Origin: Clostridia bacterium
GTDB taxonomy: Bacteria > Bacillota > Clostridia > Christensenellales > UBA1242
Assembly (NCBI GenBank): GCA_017619495.1
Contig: JAFZSF010000012.1
Coordinates: forward strand, 1-59,252
Direction of reading: 5' to 3'
Length of the DNA stretch: 59,252 nt
Translations under genes and position numbers: made by a program
Notes under the pieces: model-generated
What the model saw: the letters and a program-made list of their open reading frames with translations, nothing else
Databases searched by the model: none
What the model was told of the DNA's origin: nothing
In this document: one piece after another, positions 10,611 through 59,252 of the stretch
How positions within the stretch are numbered: the first letter of the stretch is position 1
How the letters are laid out: each line of letters opens with the position of its first letter

Positions 10611-10685
10611 GAATTATGGTGCGATTTACATTTCAAATTTTATTAAACTATGTTATACTGTAACGAAACAAAAGGAGGCATTAAC

Positions 10686-11537
10686 ATGAAAAAGAAGTTG
10701 TGGTTGGTCGTAGCGTCTTTCGTGTTGTTATCCGTAATGGCTTATGCGGTCGTCGGGTGGACTTTCTTTTGGGGTAAACGGGAGCCTGCTGATGCGGTTC
10801 AAAATAGCACTGTTACCAAAGCTTTTTACACGGTTGATTTTGTAACTCATGGAACCACTACTATTAATTCACAAGCAGTGCCCCATGGACAGAAGGCAAC
10901 GAAACCAGTTGACCCGACTTTTGAAGGTTGTATTTTTATGGGGTGGTATTTAGATGCCAATTATAGTGGTGAGCCATTTGATTTTGATAAGCCGATTACC
11001 AGTGATATGACCTTGTATGCCTGTTGGAATGCGATTATTTATACGGTAACTTTTGACAGTTGTGGTGGCACTGCGGTCGCAGCAATCCCCGTGATGGAAG
11101 GGAAAAAAATTACTGAACCAACGACCGAGTGGACAGGATATGAATTTAGGGGTTGGTATACTGACGAAGCGTATAGTACCCCGTTTGATTTCGACCAAAA
11201 GATTACGCAAAATATTACTCTTTATGCCAAATGGTCGATTCGGTTTACATTGGCTCATGATGGGGAATCTTATGGGGTTACGGAATATGATGGTACCGCG
11301 TCAGCAATTACGATTCCCGCCATCTATCGTGGTAAACCGGTCACATATATTGGCAAGTGGGTTTTTGAAAATTGTCAAACTTTAACTTCGGTTGTGATTG
11401 AGGAAGGTGTTTTGCGCCTTGATCGCTGTGTGTTTTATGGCTGCAGTAATTTAATGACGATAATTATTCCGGTCAGTGTGATCGAAATTGATGAAGATGC
11501 TTTCCGTAATTGTCCAGCTGAAATTATCCGTAAATAA
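10686..11537 (+). CDS. surface protein with Listeria/Bacteroides-type repeats and a BspA-type LRR
   Basis: SD (aaaggagg), a signal-anchor helix, two repeats of the YTV.F...G......v..G.....P..P...GY.F.GWY type, and a C-terminal FENCQTLTSVVI / FYGCSNL LRR. Confidence 0.75.
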   Translation: MKKKLWLVVASFVLLSVMAYAVVGWTFFWGKREPADAVQNSTVTKAFYTVDFVTHGTTTINSQAVPHGQKATKPVDPTFEGCIFMGWYLDANYSGEPFDFDKPITSDMTLYACWNAIIYTVTFDSCGGTAVAAIPVMEGKKITEPTTEWTGYEFRGWYTDEAYSTPFDFDQKITQNITLYAKWSIRFTLAHDGESYGVTEYDGTASAITIPAIYRGKPVTYIGKWVFENCQTLTSVVIEEGVLRLDRCVFYGCSNLMTIIIPVSVIEIDEDAFRNCPAEIIRK

Positions 11538-13847: not shown

Positions 13848-16800
13848 ATGAAAAATCTTCACATTTCCTTAAAAAATTTTTTAATGTTGTTGTGTCTGCT
13901 AGCGATGTTTCCGTTTGCAATACTGTTAACGGCATGTGATGGTGGGGGCTCAGGAACGGTGACACCGGACAGAACAATTATGGATGTGAGCTGCGCGATT
14001 CGTGATAGCAGTGTTAATTACACGTTTGTGAATGATTATGAAATTCGGATTGCACATGATGCGAATATTTACAGTCTCATTGGTAATCAGGATTTTATTG
14101 TGACAGTTTATTATTCGGATGGCACTAACGAGGTTGTTAATTTGGGTTATACCGTTAATATTGTCGACCATACTAGCGAAGGTATGTATTACGATTACAC
14201 AATTGAAGTTAGTTATTCGGGTATTGATTATACAATTTGTTCCATCAATGTAATTGTTGATGCAGAGATGTTGCCAATGTTTACAAACCTTTCTGCGATT
14301 GGTGATATTTATTCGGGTTATAATTTTACCGAAGAATTACGTTATACTGGTAATGAATACGATGTTTCCGAAATGATTGTTACCGGTGATGGTACAACCT
14401 TGGCAGAGTTAGTTGCGCAAAACAAAGTAACTTTGGATACTTCAAATTACGGTTGTGCTTTACCAACTTGTACCTACCAAACAACAAATCCAAATGTATA
14501 TTGTGGTAATGATCAATATGATAATTATTCATTTATCATCCGGGCGAACCGTGGTTATCAATGGGAAATTGAAGGACAAGCGGTTGATTCGTTAACCGTA
14601 AACTGGCAAATTAAACGTCAAATTATTGATACACCGGTATTAACTTCGGCAACTGAATTTACTTATCAACACCGTGCTGAAACAGTCAATGGCCAAACAA
14701 CTTATGTTGGTGTACCACAAAGTTTAACCTTTAATTATGGTAATGGGGCACTGTATGTTACTCCCGCGGATCAACAAACCGATCATGGAATGTACCAAAC
14801 TGTGTTGAGAGTGAAAGATGAATGCGATGAATTCTACACCTTTATGATTAATGGTGAAGAACGTGATTCAGTGTGGTTTGATTGGTCAATTACACCAATG
14901 CAATTAACACGACCGACCATTGCGCAAAATCATTATACTTATACTGGCAGCGAAATTAAACCAGCCGTAATTAGTGATTATTTGGATTTGTTTGACATTA
15001 CTTATCCAACTTGGTGTGTTGCAGCATCATCGGAAAATTCTTGGTACCAAATTGGTATTAGTTTGAAACCTGAATATTATTATTCGTACAATTATAATTT
15101 GGGTTATGATGAAAGTAATCCTGTTTATAACGTTAATCTAAATTACTACATTGATCCAGCATCATTCCCGACCGCAATCGCAACAGACCTTGATAATATC
15201 AACTTTGTTTTGGAAAAGGATTTGAATTACGACTATGGTACTTATGCGTCATCAATGACTTATGAAGAATATGTGAATGCTTTATATAAAGGTGATTTCG
15301 TTAATTCGGTTGTTGAGATGGCAGAATTCCAAGACCAATATGACAGTGAACGTTGGAGTAGATTTGAATTTGAATTACCTGATACTATGCCTGATGGTTT
15401 AACCGCCGACAGTTATCTTGATGCGAATACAACTACTGGTTATCCGGTTAAAGTTATGTACTGGTATGACCAAACAAATTATCAACCCTATACCTTTACG
15501 GCAATTTTGAAAATAAAACCAAAAGAAATGCCAATTAATACGACCTGGCAGCGTTGGATTTCTACCACAGGATACAGTGGATATATCAACACAGCAGACA
15601 GCGAAATCGTTTATGATCCGGAGGCAACATATGGTTATTACTTAAATAATTTCCATGAAATTGCAGTAAATTATACGATTTATTATGGTACAACGGAAAA
15701 CAATATCAATACACCTGTTAATGCTATGTCAAATGCAGGTTATTATCGTATCGTGGCAACTTTAGTGGCACCCAACAACAATAACACAAATAACTTCTTG
15801 ATTTATGATGAAGATGATAATAGTAAAACTCCAATTGCATCTTTAACATATCCAAACATTATACACATTAGCCCAAAACCGGTTTCATTCTGGGCTTACA
15901 GTGGTACAGTAAATTATGTTAATACTTGTGAAAATTATTACGTAGAGGGCGTGGCACGAAGCATTGATAAGCCAACCTTACATGACACTTTGGTATTACC
16001 TTATGTTGATGATCAAAATGACCAAGTGGAACGAGTAACATACTATCGTGCTAATCAAAATGCGGCTTGGACGGTAGCTGAAAACACGATTGATGTCGGT
16101 TATTATAAAACAGTGTTTACTTGGCATTTGAATGACCAATACAATGATGGTAACTATCAATTGGTATCGTTTGATGCCGATACTAATGCTAATGTCGACG
16201 GTGGTTTTGCAACGGTTGAATGGTATATTTACCCCAATACTTATGCATTACAAACCACAAACCCCAATGCAGATGGTTACATTGGTTGGTTGAATAATGA
16301 TGAATTTAGCGTGTATTATAATAATAACTACGATTGGTTTGCTGAATTGCCAGTTACAAAACCAGATGGTATCGGTATTGACTATATGTATGATAATGCT
16401 CATTACAATAGTGAAACCGGTGTGTGGCAAAGTTCTGGCAGTCAAAATTCGTCTAACCCGTCTGAAACGGGCGATTACTTGATGTATGCGAACTTCTATG
16501 TTAAAAACATCGCAGGTTGGGATCAGGTGACGGTAACAGTAGATGGTGAAGCGCGTATAATTAGTGAAGGCCATAAAATTATTTATTCTACAAATTCAAA
16601 ACATTTAGCCATTGTGGAGCAAACACCATCAAATATCGTCTTAAACAACAATGTGACATTTAACGTAGGTGGTTACAAATATTTCAGCTTTACCACGGGT
16701 GATGCTACGGAATATATGATTATTACCAATGAATCTAATGCAGTATTTAATCTTCGTTTAGCTAACGGAACGGACTATACATATTTACAAGGTGCAAGAT

Positions 16801-17384
16801 TAAACAATAGTCAATCTTATTACCTTTTACACGAATTGGAACCGAATACGAATTATGTTTTAAGGATTGGTCCAAATTCTAATTCTACTGAAGGCACACG
16901 TAGTTTCATGTTGATGGTATATCCGGAGCAATTAGATTTTGAATATTCAAATGCAGTTACGGTTTATGATTTTACTAATGGTACGACTACTAGTGGTGGT
17001 TTTGTAATTTCCGCCCATGATGTTAATGTTGGTGAAACGGTAACAGTTCCGGCAACAGTTTATGCCGGTGTACCAACCAATCCGGATGAACCGATGAATT
17101 TAACATATTCAGCACATGATGTTATTGCTATTACAGCTAATGGTTTTGAAAATAACACCATGACACGCATTGATTTACCGTTTATCAAAAACATCGGTGA
17201 CCACGCGTTCAAAAATTGTACCAATTTGCGTGAAATCCATTTTGCTTATTATAATGGTGATTGGAAGAATATAGTCTTTGGTAAAAATGCATTTGAGGGT
17301 TGTACGAATTTAACTTTGTACACTGGTAATGGTGGAATTTATCACGTTTCTGAAGATGGTTCAATTACCGAAATTAACGCCTAA
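13848..17384 (+). CDS. large surface lipoprotein with a C-terminal BspA-type LRR (1178 aa)
   Basis: SD (caggagga), a signal peptide with lipobox (AILLTAC), a Y/N/T-rich beta-type body and C-terminal DHAFKNCTNL / NAFEGCTNL LRR units. Confidence 0.75.
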   Translation: MKNLHISLKNFLMLLCLLAMFPFAILLTACDGGGSGTVTPDRTIMDVSCAIRDSSVNYTFVNDYEIRIAHDANIYSLIGNQDFIVTVYYSDGTNEVVNLGYTVNIVDHTSEGMYYDYTIEVSYSGIDYTICSINVIVDAEMLPMFTNLSAIGDIYSGYNFTEELRYTGNEYDVSEMIVTGDGTTLAELVAQNKVTLDTSNYGCALPTCTYQTTNPNVYCGNDQYDNYSFIIRANRGYQWEIEGQAVDSLTVNWQIKRQIIDTPVLTSATEFTYQHRAETVNGQTTYVGVPQSLTFNYGNGALYVTPADQQTDHGMYQTVLRVKDECDEFYTFMINGEERDSVWFDWSITPMQLTRPTIAQNHYTYTGSEIKPAVISDYLDLFDITYPTWCVAASSENSWYQIGISLKPEYYYSYNYNLGYDESNPVYNVNLNYYIDPASFPTAIATDLDNINFVLEKDLNYDYGTYASSMTYEEYVNALYKGDFVNSVVEMAEFQDQYDSERWSRFEFELPDTMPDGLTADSYLDANTTTGYPVKVMYWYDQTNYQPYTFTAILKIKPKEMPINTTWQRWISTTGYSGYINTADSEIVYDPEATYGYYLNNFHEIAVNYTIYYGTTENNINTPVNAMSNAGYYRIVATLVAPNNNNTNNFLIYDEDDNSKTPIASLTYPNIIHISPKPVSFWAYSGTVNYVNTCENYYVEGVARSIDKPTLHDTLVLPYVDDQNDQVERVTYYRANQNAAWTVAENTIDVGYYKTVFTWHLNDQYNDGNYQLVSFDADTNANVDGGFATVEWYIYPNTYALQTTNPNADGYIGWLNNDEFSVYYNNNYDWFAELPVTKPDGIGIDYMYDNAHYNSETGVWQSSGSQNSSNPSETGDYLMYANFYVKNIAGWDQVTVTVDGEARIISEGHKIIYSTNSKHLAIVEQTPSNIVLNNNVTFNVGGYKYFSFTTGDATEYMIITNESNAVFNLRLANGTDYTYLQGARLNNSQSYYLLHELEPNTNYVLRIGPNSNSTEGTRSFMLMVYPEQLDFEYSNAVTVYDFTNGTTTSGGFVISAHDVNVGETVTVPATVYAGVPTNPDEPMNLTYSAHDVIAITANGFENNTMTRIDLPFIKNIGDHAFKNCTNLREIHFAYYNGDWKNIVFGKNAFEGCTNLTLYTGNGGIYHVSEDGSITEINA

Positions 17385-22316: not shown

Positions 22317-22393
22317 TGGTGCGAACGAGAGGATTTGAACCTCCAAAAATGCGCTTCTGAGACGCACGCGTATGCCAGTTCCGCCACGCTCGC
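22317..22393 (-). tRNA. tRNA-Leu (CAG), 77 nt, with a short 5-nt variable loop
   Basis: The minus strand reads GCGAGCG TG GCGGAACTGGCATACGC G TGCGT CTCAGAA GCGCA TTTTT GGAGG TTCAAAT CCTCT CGTTCGC A CCA. It has a Leu-type D-arm and A73. A TTGACA/TATGCT promoter lies upstream. Confidence 0.8.
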
Positions 22394-22485
22394 ATGTGGT
22401 ATAGCATAAATCATTTCGACCGCTTTGTCAAAACTTGTGTGAAAATGCGTTTGTCAAAAAGTGTGTTTATGTGTAATTTATAACT

Positions 22486-25062
22486 GTGGTATTAAAACGC
22501 ATTATGATGAATGGCTTTAAGTCGTTCGCCGACAAAATCGAAATTGATTTTGGCGCGGGTATTACGGGTATTGTCGGCCCCAATGGGTGCGGCAAAAGTA
22601 ATGTTAGTGATGCGATTAAATGGGTATTGGGAGAACAGAGTTACAAGGCTGTGCGTGGCGGATCCATGCAAGATGTGATTTTTAAGGGAACGGCTAACCG
22701 CAAAATGCAATCGTACGCCGAAGTGGCGTTAGTCTTTGATAACCATACTCATGTGTTTGAAATTGATGAAAGTGAAGTAACAATTTCGCGTAAGTTGTAT
22801 CGTGATGGTGAAAGCGAGTATGCTTTGAACGGACAACCGACGCGTTTGAAAGATATTAATAATTTGTTACATGACAGCGGTATTGACCGTGACGGTTTAA
22901 CAATTATTAGTCAAGGGCAGGTCGCGGATTTAGTTTCCGCTAAGCCGGAAAATCGCCGTGGAATTTTTGAGGAAGCCGCGGGCATTGCTAAGTTCCGTGC
23001 GCGTAAAGATGAAGCTGAGCGTAAGTTAGATCGTACAAGTCAAGAGTTAGTGCGCGTAAGTGATGTCTTAGCGGAAATTGAACGCAATTTAGGGCCGTTA
23101 ATGAAGCAAGCCGAAAAAGCGCAAAAGTACTTACAATTAAAAGAAGAATTAAAGCATTTAGAAATTAATTTGTTCATTTATAAATACGACCATGTCGCGG
23201 AAGAAAAGGCTAAAGCCCAAGCCGAAGCCGATAAATTGGATAAAGAACTGAAAGCATTGCAAGGTCAATTGGAAATGATGGACCGCGCGAGTGCGAATGG
23301 CATGCAAGAACTATCTGCGCTGGATAAAAAAGTGGCAGAATTGCGCGACCAAATTTTGGCATTATCTTTAGATAGTCAACGCCAAAGCGGCGAACAATTA
23401 TTATATCAAGCGACGGCGGATAGTTTGCACCAAGCCGAACTGCAACGCGAGCAATTACTGTCGAAAAAACAAATGATTGCCAATATTATTGATTCGGGCG
23501 AAGGTTTCAAATTCAGTGTGAAAAAGCTAATTGAAGAACGCAATCGTAACAGTGCGGTAGCGCGTGCGATTGTGGGTGTGGTGTCGCAAGAGTTGACGGT
23601 ACCGTCAGAATTAGAAACTGCGATTGAAATGGCGTTGGGGGCGGCAGCACAGAATGTGATTACCCACGATGAAGAAGACGCCAAGGAATTAGTGCACTTA
23701 TTAGCGAGTAAGAACTTAGGACGCGCCACATTCTTGCCGATTACCGCGGTTAAAGCACGCGACATTAAACCCGAAGAACGCGCAATTTTGCGCGGTATGG
23801 GTAAGCGTGTTTTGGGTGTCGCTAGTGAATTAGTTGAGTATAAACCGGAAATTGCCGGTGTAATTTCAAATTTATTAGGACGGGTGATTGTTTGTGATAA
23901 TTTGGACTCGGCAATCGCATTGTCGCGTCAGGCTCATTATGCTTTCAAAGTGGTCACCTTGGACGGTGATATCATTGAACCGCGTGGTAGTATTACCGGC
24001 GGTAGTAAAAACTCAGTAACCAATACTTTATGGCATACGAATAACTTAAAACAAATTGAAGCACAATTAGTTGAGGTCGATAAAAATATTGCCACCTTAC
24101 GGGAAAAACTGAGTCAATTAAAAGTTGATACTAAGGACAATCATCTAAGCGAAGCCCAAAAGCAATTGGAACATTTAAAAGACGAATTGGCGAAAACGCT
24201 TGCGGAACGCGATAATTTACACTATGCCACGGGTACTTCGGTTTCGGGTCGTACCGAGTTGTCAGAGCAGATTAATACTTTGCAAGTAAAATATTATTAC
24301 GCAACCAATTTGTTAACCCGCATGGACGCCGAAATTGAAAATTTAAGTCAGCGTATTGCCGATGAATATAATTTGAATTACAGTGCTTGTTATGAACAAC
24401 GCGATCCGGCGTTTAATCTTGAAACCGCTGAACCACGCGTTGATGAATTACGCCGTGCGATTCAACATCTGGGCAATGTTAACTTAGATGCAATTGAACA
24501 AGTTAAAACTGACAGTGAACGCTACGAAAGTTATAAAGCGCAAAGTGATGACTTGTTTGCGGCGAAACAAGATTTGGAAAAAGTCATGCGCGATTTGTCG
24601 CAACAAATGGAAAAGAACTTTAAAACGGCGTTTGAACAAATCAACAAAAACTTCGGCACTGTGTTCCAAGAATTATTTGGTGGCGGCAGTGCAAAGTTGG
24701 TTTTAACCGATGAAGAAAATTTCTTGGAATGCGGTATTGATATTATCGCTGAACCGCCGGGTAAGAAATTGGCTAACATTTCGTTAATGTCGGGTGGGGA
24801 AAAGGCTCTGACAGCGATTGCGATTTTGTTCGCTATCTTGAAATATAAAACGATGCCATTCTGTTTACTTGACGAAATTGAAGCGGCTTTGGACGATGCT
24901 AATGTTTCGCGCTTTGCCAGTTACTTGCATCGTTTCTCGGGTGAAACACAATTTATCGTGATTACGCACCGTAAACCGACAATGGAGTTGGCGGACCGTC
25001 TGTACGGTATTACCATGGAAGAGAAGGGTATCAGTAAGATTGTATCGGTCAAATTGGCATAA
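22486..25062 (+). CDS. smc: chromosome segregation protein SMC (short, 858 aa)
   Basis: GTG start giving MVLKRIMMNGFKSFADK. Walker A is GPNGCGKSN, the hinge spans about aa 340-505 (GRATFLP...GGS), the signature is LMSGGEK, and Walker B is LLDEIEAALD. Confidence 0.9.
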   Translation: MVLKRIMMNGFKSFADKIEIDFGAGITGIVGPNGCGKSNVSDAIKWVLGEQSYKAVRGGSMQDVIFKGTANRKMQSYAEVALVFDNHTHVFEIDESEVTISRKLYRDGESEYALNGQPTRLKDINNLLHDSGIDRDGLTIISQGQVADLVSAKPENRRGIFEEAAGIAKFRARKDEAERKLDRTSQELVRVSDVLAEIERNLGPLMKQAEKAQKYLQLKEELKHLEINLFIYKYDHVAEEKAKAQAEADKLDKELKALQGQLEMMDRASANGMQELSALDKKVAELRDQILALSLDSQRQSGEQLLYQATADSLHQAELQREQLLSKKQMIANIIDSGEGFKFSVKKLIEERNRNSAVARAIVGVVSQELTVPSELETAIEMALGAAAQNVITHDEEDAKELVHLLASKNLGRATFLPITAVKARDIKPEERAILRGMGKRVLGVASELVEYKPEIAGVISNLLGRVIVCDNLDSAIALSRQAHYAFKVVTLDGDIIEPRGSITGGSKNSVTNTLWHTNNLKQIEAQLVEVDKNIATLREKLSQLKVDTKDNHLSEAQKQLEHLKDELAKTLAERDNLHYATGTSVSGRTELSEQINTLQVKYYYATNLLTRMDAEIENLSQRIADEYNLNYSACYEQRDPAFNLETAEPRVDELRRAIQHLGNVNLDAIEQVKTDSERYESYKAQSDDLFAAKQDLEKVMRDLSQQMEKNFKTAFEQINKNFGTVFQELFGGGSAKLVLTDEENFLECGIDIIAEPPGKKLANISLMSGGEKALTAIAILFAILKYKTMPFCLLDEIEAALDDANVSRFASYLHRFSGETQFIVITHRKPTMELADRLYGITMEEKGISKIVSVKLA

Positions 25063-34039: not shown

Positions 34040-34116
34040 TGGTGTCAGCGACAGGACTTGAACCTGCAAAAACTGGTTCCTAAGACCAGCGCGTATGCCA
34101 ATTCCGCCACGCTGAC
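34040..34116 (-). tRNA. tRNA-Leu (UAG), 77 nt, with a short 5-nt variable loop
   Basis: The minus strand reads GTCAGCG TG GCGGAATTGGCATACGC G CTGGT CTTAGGA ACCAG TTTTT GCAGG TTCAAGT CCTGT CGCTGAC A CCA. A tgTTATAAT promoter lies upstream. Confidence 0.8.
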
Positions 34117-34242
34117 AATAGGTCATTATAACAGATAAAGTTAATTCTGAAAACTGAATAGTTAAGAAAGCTTGCGGTCGCGGGCTTTTCTTTGTCAGTA
34201 CTTTAAAGACGGCGAGTTCGTTTTTACACTAATGGAAAGGTC

Positions 34243-34331: not shown

Positions 34332-35354
34332 ATGAACAAAAAAGCAATTATTGCGGTCTTAAGTGCCTTGGTCTTAACCGTGGTGGCATCGGTAACTTTA
34401 ATTTTAACGGTGGGACAAAAAGCCAGCGCGGATAGCGGTGATATCGCCGTTATGGAAGGTGAACAATATTTCAATATTACAACTAGTGTCATTGATTATG
34501 ACAGCGATTGGATAACTGAAGAAGGATGGAATTTTATTAACAATCATGACAAAGTGAAAATTGTTATTCCCGAAGGTGTTGTAGTACTTGACGGCTATGA
34601 GTATGATGGTGGTAAAACGAATGTTTTTAACAACAATCGTTCAGATAAAATTGTGTCGATCGTTTTGCCCAGTACGTTGATTCGAATTGGTGTAGCTGCA
34701 TTGTCTAATTTGGAAAATGTTTCCAGTATAGAAATTCCGGAAGGAGTAACAAGTATTCGCCGTTTTGCTTTCTCTGGTTGTGGAATTACCACCTTAAATT
34801 TACCGTCAACTTTAACAAGTATTGATAATGGTGCATTTGAGGATTGCCATAATTTAACAACTGTTTTTATTCCCAAAAGTGTAACTGAAATGGAAGGAAA
34901 CGTTTTTTGCCGTGGGGATTTCGGTGACTATAGTATGTGGCCGGAGATTACATACTATTTAGATAGTTTGTCTACTATTTATTGTGAAGCAGAGTCAAAA
35001 CCCGCAGGTTGGGATAATGATTGGTTGGTTGTTTATACAGAACCTTACGATTACATACGTACGCATGAGCAAGAAACTGTAGATGATGTTGAAGTTGTTT
35101 GGGGTTACAAGCCGCAAGGTACTAATCAGGAAGAAAACCCAAACGATGAAGAAAACAATCAACAAAGTGAAAACGAAAACAATACCCAAAGCGAAAATGA
35201 AAGTGACGATGTATCCGAAGTTGGTAATACTGTTACTCAAAACAATAATGGTAACGAGGTTAGAGCGGCTGCGGCTGCGGGAATTGGTAGCGGTGTAACA
35301 GGCGTTGCTTTAGGCAGTGTATTAGGTGTAGTCTTGAGAAGACGCCGTAAATAA
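34332..35354 (+). CDS. BspA-type LRR surface protein with a C-terminal membrane anchor
   Basis: SD (agaggagg), a signal-anchor, LRR units (GVAALSNLENVSSIEIPEGVTSI; FAFSGCGITTLNLP; GAFEDCHNLTTVFIP), an N/E/Q-rich linker, and a C-terminal hydrophobic helix followed by RRRRK. Confidence 0.75.
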   Translation: MNKKAIIAVLSALVLTVVASVTLILTVGQKASADSGDIAVMEGEQYFNITTSVIDYDSDWITEEGWNFINNHDKVKIVIPEGVVVLDGYEYDGGKTNVFNNNRSDKIVSIVLPSTLIRIGVAALSNLENVSSIEIPEGVTSIRRFAFSGCGITTLNLPSTLTSIDNGAFEDCHNLTTVFIPKSVTEMEGNVFCRGDFGDYSMWPEITYYLDSLSTIYCEAESKPAGWDNDWLVVYTEPYDYIRTHEQETVDDVEVVWGYKPQGTNQEENPNDEENNQQSENENNTQSENESDDVSEVGNTVTQNNNGNEVRAAAAAGIGSGVTGVALGSVLGVVLRRRRK

Positions 35355-58930: not shown

Positions 58931-59252
58931 TAATATTAGAGTTTGATTCTGGCTCAGGACGAACGCTGGCGGCGTGCTTAATACATGCAAGTCGAACGGA
59001 TATGTAGCAATACATATTAGTGGCGGACGGGTGAGTAACGCGTAACCAACCTGCCTTTTACAGGGGAATAACACTTGGAAACAGGTGCTAATACCGCATA
59101 TGACCACAACGCGGCATCGCGAAGGGGTAAAAGTTTTATCGGTAAAAGAGGGGGTTGCGTATCATTAGCTTGTTGGTGAGGTAACGGCCCACCAAGGCGA
59201 CGATGATTAACCGGCCTGAGAGGGTAAATGGTCACACTGGAACTGAGACACG
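58931..59252 (+). rRNA. rrs: 16S ribosomal RNA, 5' part (runs off the window)
   Basis: AGAGTTTGATTCTGGCTCAGGACGAACGCTGGCGGCGTGCTTAATACATGCAAGTCGAACGG at 58938 onward. The exact 5' end is estimated. Confidence 0.95.

Follow-up and report, generated by a model that had tools for sequence, protein, structure and literature searches.

In the 59,252-nt stretch of DNA analyzed here, which we call the window, a leucine tRNA gene with the anticodon UAG has five unpaired U residues in place of the long variable arm (a stem-loop of >10 nt) of class II tRNAs, and we judge, at a probability of about 0.8, that its product works as a leucine tRNA on the minor CUN codons. Read in this way, it would be a functional chromosomal gene whose leucine-accepting product decodes these codons with its class II arm lost.

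Structure and genomic setting of the tRNA-Leu(UAG) gene

ARAGORN calls a 77-nt tRNA-Leu(UAG), encoded CCA included (Table 1), and the Rfam model RF00005 aligns with positions 34043-34116 from end to end (model positions 1-71) at 61 bits, more than double its gathering score of 29 (E = 8.5e-11 for the whole window). Read on the minus strand, the 5' half is GUCAGCG-UG-GCGG-AAUUGGCAU-ACGC-G-CUGGU-CUUAGGA-ACCAG, and the 3' half, from the variable loop onward, is UUUUU-GCAGG-UUCAAGU-CCUGU-CGCUGAC-A-CCA. The acceptor stem (7 bp) and the anticodon stem (5 bp) pair perfectly, the T stem has 5 bp of which one is a G49-U65 wobble, and the D stem consists of 3 bp and G13/A22, as in ordinary tRNALeu. This is the fold that a sequence-only reading of the window had proposed, with all stems paired, both the anticodon and the acceptor stem perfect, and G37, A73 and an encoded CCA in place, and it agrees in each respect with the minus-strand sequence. 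The unconstrained minimum-free-energy (MFE) fold differs from the cloverleaf (z = -2.15), a result that carries no weight against the call, since non-cloverleaf MFE folds are usual for tRNA transcripts.

A consensus scan predicts a sigma-70-type promoter upstream of the gene, with 10/12 consensus matches and a -10 element that ends 8 nt from the mature 5' end. The -10 hexamer that had been pointed out earlier proves to be TG-extended, and a -35 element is present as well.

Table 1. Coordinates of the two arm-less tRNA-Leu genes and their promoters in the window
Feature	Position	Strand	Basis
tRNA-Leu(UAG), class I (type I)	34040..34116	-	ARAGORN, Rfam, conservation, pairing
Anticodon UAG of the UAG tRNA	34080-34082	-	sequence
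Variable loop of the UAG tRNA, UUUUU, 5 nt	34068-34072	-	sequence
Discriminator A73 of the UAG tRNA	34043	-	sequence
Predicted sigma-70-type promoter of the UAG gene: TTTTCA (34153-34148), 17-nt spacer, TG-extended TATAAT (34130-34125)	34125..34153	-	consensus scan
Class I tRNA-Leu(CAG), 77 nt, UUUUU loop, A73, encoded CCA, A37	22317..22393	-	ARAGORN, Rfam 54.5 bits
Putative promoter of the CAG gene: TTGACA (22431-22426), 17-nt spacer, TATGCT (22408-22403)	22403..22431	-	read from sequence

The window belongs to a cellular genome: it contains the 5' end of a 16S rRNA gene (58931-59252) and, by Pfam, smc and ffh, with rpsP and a Spore_YunB gene nearby, and it uses the standard code, with no in-frame stops in 46 ORFs. 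ARAGORN finds eight tRNA genes in it (Gln, Glu, Leu, Pro, Leu, Gly, Thr and Cys), and a 10-kb extension of the scaffold on the rpsL-rpsG-fusA side (L324) yielded no further tRNAs. The UAG gene is solitary: its neighbors are ffh, rpsP, UDG and genes for LRR and SHOCT proteins, and the nearest tRNA genes are those for Gly (39019), ~4.9 kb away, and Pro (26244), ~7.8 kb away. There were no phage hallmark hits and no integrase near the gene, and a prophage context was rejected.

Several features of the window are recorded here in their own right. Eight solitary tRNAs in 59 kb represent a high density for an unclustered layout, most genes lie on the plus strand, and GC skew is positive throughout. 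Three regions (10650-11537, 13848-17384 and 34332-35354) encode BspA-type leucine-rich-repeat proteins (LRR_5, Flg_new), one of them 1178 aa long, and the gene at 34332-35354, which adjoins the UAG tRNA, is absent or moved in some members of the lineage defined below. The SMC protein (22486-25062) has only 858 aa, with both head halves and the hinge detected; bacterial SMC proteins usually have ~1,180 aa.

The host lineage and its samples

The scaffold that includes the window comes from a gut metagenome (sample SAMN15830091), and the runs containing the window are sheep, goat, bovine and other gut metagenomes. A search with Ffh recovered 16 genomes at 84-97% identity, after which identity drops to 65% or below (Christensenella, Pumilibacter muris and Ca. 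Fimadaptatus). By "lineage" we mean these ~17 species-level metagenome-assembled genomes (MAGs), that of the window included, at 84-97% Ffh identity, a grouping roughly at the genus to family level that appears to be a Christensenellales-like, uncultured group of ruminant-gut Clostridia. All 16 relatives are MAGs labelled "Clostridia" or "Eubacteriales bacterium", except for three labelled Prevotella, whose lineage contigs are L022 and L246 (CAZXAV01), L025 (CAYJJH01), and L053 and L248 (JAMPCO01). The Ffh proteins of these three are 92-93% identical and their tRNAs are identical, and the MAGs look mislabelled, either through wrong taxonomy or through mis-binning.

In the run from the source sample (X1), summed contig depth reaches ~1146 over the UAG tRNA as against 8-9 in the flanking genes, and a variant of the tRNA with a 1-nt deletion in the D-loop co-occurs; many co-resident relatives appear to carry the same UAG tRNA sequence. 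Two organism-labelled runs (X9 and X12) were considered as single-genome sets for counting Leu tRNAs and were set aside as complex, multi-strain assemblies.

Conservation, covariation and promoter retention

From the lineage we recovered 13 UAG and 10 CAG copies, all of which have a variable region of 5 nt. The UAG gene is 95-100% identical across 10 lineage loci, whereas its flanks are unalignable (36-39% identity over the upstream 200 nt and 25-35% over the downstream 200 nt). The CAG gene is 99-100% identical in nine lineage loci, with a mean of 63-64% (range 33-88%) over the upstream 200 nt and 29-31% over the downstream 200 nt. The promoters persist in these surroundings: all orthologous UAG loci have TATAAT or TATACT together with an upstream TTGCC, TTGCA or TTTTCA at a constant distance within flanks that are otherwise unalignable, and all nine CAG orthologs keep TTGACA and a -10-like hexamer in position (TTGACA-17 nt-TATGCT or similar). 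The synteny of both Leu genes is also maintained across the ~17 species. A tRNA-Pro(UGG) gene lies ~3.7 kb from the CAG gene in the window, and the same two genes are neighbors, 2.7-3.6 kb apart, in L022, L103, L251 and L255.

The few changes seen inside the UAG gene are neutral or compensatory, and such as a functional tRNA could tolerate. The D-loop varies in length by 1 nt (AAUUGG vs AAUGG), the acceptor stem of L250-L252 has the compensatory replacement of C6-G67 by U6-A67, and the variable loops read UUUUU, UUUCU or UUAUU in UAG copies and UUUUU or UUCUU in CAG copies, with U44, U45 and U48 fixed throughout the lineage. Every one of the eight distinct sequences in the alignment has standard pairs at 20/20 positions of the cloverleaf, and seven pairs have changed on both sides, one of them within the UAG orthologs and six between the UAG and CAG paralogs; when the 3' partners were slid by 1-3 columns as a control, pairing fell to 28-51%. 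The sequence-only reading had anticipated both that the stems of the two paralogs differ while remaining complementary, which holds for 100% of the pairs, and that the two copies have the UUUUU variable loop in common. The CAG tRNA has A37 (anticodon loop CUCAGAA), not G37; G37 is the m1G37 site expected in CUN-reading tRNAs.

These observations bear on whether the gene is merely a decaying tRNA-Leu pseudogene with a deleted variable arm. The deletion of the arm is a plausible lesion for a pseudogene, and the MFE fold is not a cloverleaf, but decay is extremely improbable given a gene that is so highly conserved between unalignable flanks, that has a compensatory pair and all pairs intact in every variant, and that retains its promoter and CCA, the same state being fixed in two paralogs across ~17 species. 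We excluded this explanation on three grounds: helices are intact, conservation exceeds that of the flanks, and the promoter is kept. The claim made from the sequence of the window, that the gene is functional and not decaying, was upheld by the contrast with the flanks, the constant promoter position and the compensatory substitutions; so was the claim that the design is lineage-wide, the arm-less state being fixed in both UAG and CAG genes. Metatranscriptome contigs from X22 and X23 overlap the UAG gene but are continuous with a convergent ORF, and we did not count them as evidence of mature tRNA because they could represent read-through or DNA.

The same conservation weighs against a role outside translation, as a tRNA-like integration target or a regulatory RNA. 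Although tRNA genes are frequent attachment sites, and gene order beside the UAG gene differs in L244, L256 and L257, we regard such a role as very improbable: conservation extends to all tRNA tertiary nucleotides, the anticodon loop, the promoter and the CCA, neither an integrase nor a direct repeat of the 3' half lies nearby, and a normal tRNA suffices to explain the data.

Leucine identity and the meaning of CUN codons

Apart from the variable region, the UAG tRNA has the body of a leucine tRNA. Its D-arm, GUGGCGGAAYUGGCAUACGCG, is identical in at least 120 type II tRNALeu genes, as found by a scan that allowed any arm length and whose listed matches all come from taxa outside the lineage (Lachnospiraceae, Patescibacteria, Chloroflexota and others), and with the variable region set aside, its body shares 81-88% identity with long-arm tRNALeu from other bacteria. 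It keeps A73, U8-A14, A15-U48, and G18G19 with U55C56, all of them invariant in the lineage alignment, and G3-U70 is absent. The leucyl-tRNA synthetase (LeuRS) determinants considered here were taken from two studies (PMC2377443; PMC6614811). In Aquifex tRNALeu, deletion of the arm only lowers affinity, whereas deletion of U48 abolishes charging (PMC2377443), which matches the retention of U48 without an arm in the UAG tRNA. For the type I tRNALeu of Streptomyces coelicolor, the minimum loop is five nucleotides including nucleotide 48, and it is length that counts, not base identity (PMC6614811); as far as can be read from the aligned genes, the variation of the loop within the lineage, at 5 nt and with nucleotide 48 fixed, agrees exactly with this rule.

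The meaning of the CUN codons was read from ffh in the 17 species of the lineage. At the 43 CUN columns, the residues in 64 outgroup sequences are Leu in 65%, Ile in 11% and Met in 9% of cases, and at the 50 UUR columns they are Leu in 62%, Met in 12% and Ile in 10%. All four CUN codons are seen at columns that are Leu in 64/64 outgroup sequences, and they interchange with UUR within the lineage. Because CUN codons occupy invariant-Leu columns and have the same profile as UUR, CUN means leucine and the genetic code is unchanged. Among the Leu codons of the window, CUN makes up 22% (CUU 7.9, CUC 1.9, CUA 5.0 and CUG 7.5), UUA 44% and UUG 34%. Synonymous bias is strong in window ORFs of at least 150 aa: UUA and UUG together represent 78% of Leu codons, and AGU alone 39% of Ser codons.

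A switch of identity, in which another synthetase charges the arm-less tRNA and CUN is reassigned or ambiguous, would draw on this rarity of CUN and on the altered architecture of the tRNA, and codon rarity often precedes reassignment. We give it hardly any probability, because CUN sits on conserved Leu columns just as UUR does and interchanges with it where leucine is invariant, because A73 and the Leu-type D-arm are kept while G3-U70 is lacking, and because both SerRS and bacterial TyrRS require a long arm. Reassignment was rejected on the Leu profile that CUN and UUR columns of ffh have in common.

Extent of the arm-less state among leucine isoacceptors

The arm-less genes coexist in the lineage with leucine tRNAs of the usual kind. 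A sister species (L244, contig JAHAXB010000031.1; Ffh 97% identical in amino acids), which is collinear with window positions 39092-35408 at 65-83% nucleotide identity (83% over 3.3 kb), has an ordinary 87-nt class II tRNA-Leu(CAA) adjoining a tRNA-Met. The type II CAA gene is known from this sister species, the window's own genome being covered over 59-78 kb. In L244, tRNALeu(CAA) and tRNA-Met (13917-14173) occupy the place taken in the window by an LRR_5 gene and tRNALeu(UAG), a local change of gene order beside tRNA genes.

A complete scan of 185,579 species genomes returned arm-less UAA or CAA genes with this kind of D-arm at nine loci, none of them from the lineage. Arm-less GAG genes from the lineage were likewise absent among the matches listed by the strict-pattern scan, which cover about two-thirds of the collection (six of the nine UAA/CAA loci were already among them) and in which the lineage gave CAG and UAG only. 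The type II CAA gene of L244 and the failure to find arm-less UAA, CAA or GAG genes in the lineage, each within the scope just given, indicate that the arm-less state is confined to the minor CUN box; and because the nearest outgroups (L259 and L260, Ffh 65%) carry a long-arm tRNALeu(UAG) of 83-85 nt, this state is derived. The class I-like tRNA-Leu design put forward by the sequence-only reading thus stands for UAG and CAG and fails as a general rule. Of the three further isoacceptors that it had named for comparison, CAA is long-armed in L244, UAA, like CAA, is without an arm-less counterpart in the lineage by the complete scan, and GAG did not appear among the listed matches. Nor is the trait the lineage's own, since arm-less tRNALeu recurs in many phyla and in phage contigs.

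Whether the two arm-less tRNAs are the sole decoders of the whole CUN box in the lineage is a tentative proposition, to which we give somewhat less than an even chance: a long-arm tRNALeu(NAG) elsewhere in the genome may make the UAG/CAG pair redundant.

Arm-less tRNALeu genes in tRNA arrays and phages

The strict arm-less pattern matches at least 118 loci in genome contigs from many phyla, among them Acidobacteriota (paired CAA and UAG), Nostocales and Acaryochloris (GAG, UAG, UAA and CAA), Chryseobacterium and Epilithonimonas (UAG), Burkholderiales (CAG), Elusimicrobia, Polyangia and others. Among the matches listed, 80/119 arm-less loci lie in dense tRNA arrays (5-31 tRNAs within 8 kb), in which several Leu isoacceptors of one array are often all arm-less; examples with mostly U-rich loops of 5-6 nt are L002, L010, L012, L029, L034, L045 and L085. 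Long arms are retained by the Ser and Tyr tRNAs of those arrays that we examined, a difference that fits the known arm-independence of LeuRS. In IMG/VR, at least 119 viral contigs match the pattern, those among the matches listed including 47 UAA, 37 UAG and 28 CAA genes, with UUUACU, UUUCU, AUUUU and UUUUU as common loops, and phage tRNA sets seem commonly to include arm-less tRNALeu. The tRNA arrays themselves are known (Tran et al., 2016, PMC4758250); their arm-less Leu tRNAs are an observation of the present analysis that the tRNA-array papers do not discuss. A passing remark gives the variable loops of cyanobacterial tRNALeu as 5 to 18 nt (PMC6933170), and our literature search found no explicit earlier account of arm-less tRNALeu in arrays or phages beyond that remark and PMC6614811. 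The pattern hints that mobile tRNAs lose the arm for a selective reason, which could be compactness or the evasion of nucleases specific for class II.

The UAG and CAG genes might then be dispensable accessory tRNAs of phage or array origin, with long-arm NAG tRNAs responsible for the bulk of CUN decoding and the arm-less copies persisting to supplement them, or serving as decoys or escape variants where nucleases target class II tRNAs. The arm-less tRNALeu of arrays and viral contigs share with them the short U-rich loop, the Leu anticodon and often the GGCAUACGC D-loop. Moreover, the bodies of the UAG and CAG tRNAs are 0.82 identical, above the identity of either to the type II genes (0.67-0.68 to the lineage CAA and 0.72-0.78 to the outgroup UAG, which have a different D-loop in common, GGCAGACGC, and a different anticodon stem). 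This likeness is compatible with joint acquisition, and would fit equally well a single loss of the arm followed by duplication and a change of anticodon. Array and phage genes, however, are at most 82% identical to the window genes among the matches listed, and lie in dense arrays or on viral contigs as presumably accessory tRNAs, whereas those of the window are solitary, have promoters of their own and are syntenic across ~17 species in a core-genome setting of ffh, rpsP, smc and tRNA-Pro. No phage or integrase genes are nearby, the best match among the listed viral contigs, which we searched for a recent phage donor, is only 82% identical, and near-perfect conservation is what would be expected of an essential decoder. 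We consider an accessory role unlikely, if appreciably less so than the alternatives weighed above, and retain as our preferred reading that of a working chromosomal tRNA.

Proposed function

As a working leucine tRNA, the UAG gene would be transcribed alone from its TG-extended sigma-70 promoter, starting a few nucleotides before the mature 5' end, and its transcript would be trimmed to the encoded CCA and adopt the standard cloverleaf of class I. Since the anticodon is not read by bacterial LeuRS, nor strictly speaking is the arm, leucine would be attached to the tRNA through those elements used by LeuRS that it retains: A73, U8-A14, A15-U48, the G18G19-U55C56 contacts and a 5-nt loop ending in U48. 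Once charged, it would certainly read CUA and CUG, and perhaps also CUU and CUC by wobble at U34, alongside a sister tRNA-Leu(CAG) of the same build. The major UUR codons would be served by long-arm tRNALeu, namely CAA, as seen in one member of the lineage, and UAA, which is presumed, and a lower efficiency of charging would be tolerated since demand for CUN is low. Charging could require an adapted LeuRS, because E. coli LeuRS cannot charge the type I tRNALeu of S. coelicolor (PMC6614811). A six-frame search for KMSKS motifs across all lineage loci detected CysRS only and no LeuRS; the KMSKS enzyme of the window itself is a putative CysRS by its motif context.

Comparison with known systems

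The closest counterpart is the type I tRNALeu(CAA) of S. coelicolor, which occurs alongside four type II isoacceptors and receives leucine from the single LeuRS at about half the type II efficiency, the leucine-specific domain being decisive (Fan et al., Nucleic Acids Res 2019, PMC6614811). That study describes almost all bacterial tRNALeu as type II and presents its own case as the first of its kind. Like the genes of the window, it concerns a bacterial cytoplasmic tRNALeu with a 5-nt loop and long-arm isoacceptors in the same lineage. S. coelicolor, however, belongs to the Actinomycetota and has one such isoacceptor (CAA) with the loop ACAGC, whereas the present lineage, in Bacillota/Clostridia, has two (UAG and CAG) with U-rich loops (UUUUU in the window), and A73, which is not used as an identity element in S. 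coelicolor, is retained here. In our lineage as in S. coelicolor, the arm-less tRNALeu serves minor codons, since UUG is rare in high-GC Streptomyces.

Canonical class II tRNALeu differ from the UAG tRNA in having a variable stem-loop of 13-17 nt instead of five unpaired U, and resemble it in the D-arm, the 3-bp D-stem with G13/A22, A15-U48, A73, G37 and the body at large. Animal mitochondrial tRNALeu are also of class I and are charged by a bacterial-type LeuRS, and their D and T loops are degenerate. The UAG tRNA, in contrast, has a canonical elbow (G18G19, U54U55C56 and A58) along with the bacterial Leu D-arm, and the two are unrelated by descent.

Significance

To our knowledge, a long variable arm is treated in textbooks as the universal mark of tRNALeu outside animal mitochondria, and the only characterized bacterial exception is a single S. 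coelicolor isoacceptor. The present pair joins that rare, S. coelicolor-like kind, and the trait is neither unique nor new; the lineage nonetheless constitutes a second, independent natural case, in Clostridia, involving two isoacceptors under clear purifying selection, and thus allows a natural comparison of the ways in which bacterial LeuRS manages in the absence of the arm. In practice, genes of this type should not be marked as pseudogenes by annotation pipelines or isotype models. The wider survey, in which arm-less tRNALeu recurs in arrays and phages across phyla, is possibly of more weight than the lineage itself. If the two tRNAs were indeed the sole decoders of CUN, the lineage would be the first free-living bacterial group to entrust a complete Leu codon box to core-genome class I tRNALeu, its LeuRS would have to be co-adapted to charge both architectures, and the genes themselves might have been captured from the phage or tRNA-array pool, with nucleases directed at class II tRNAs as a possible selective pressure.
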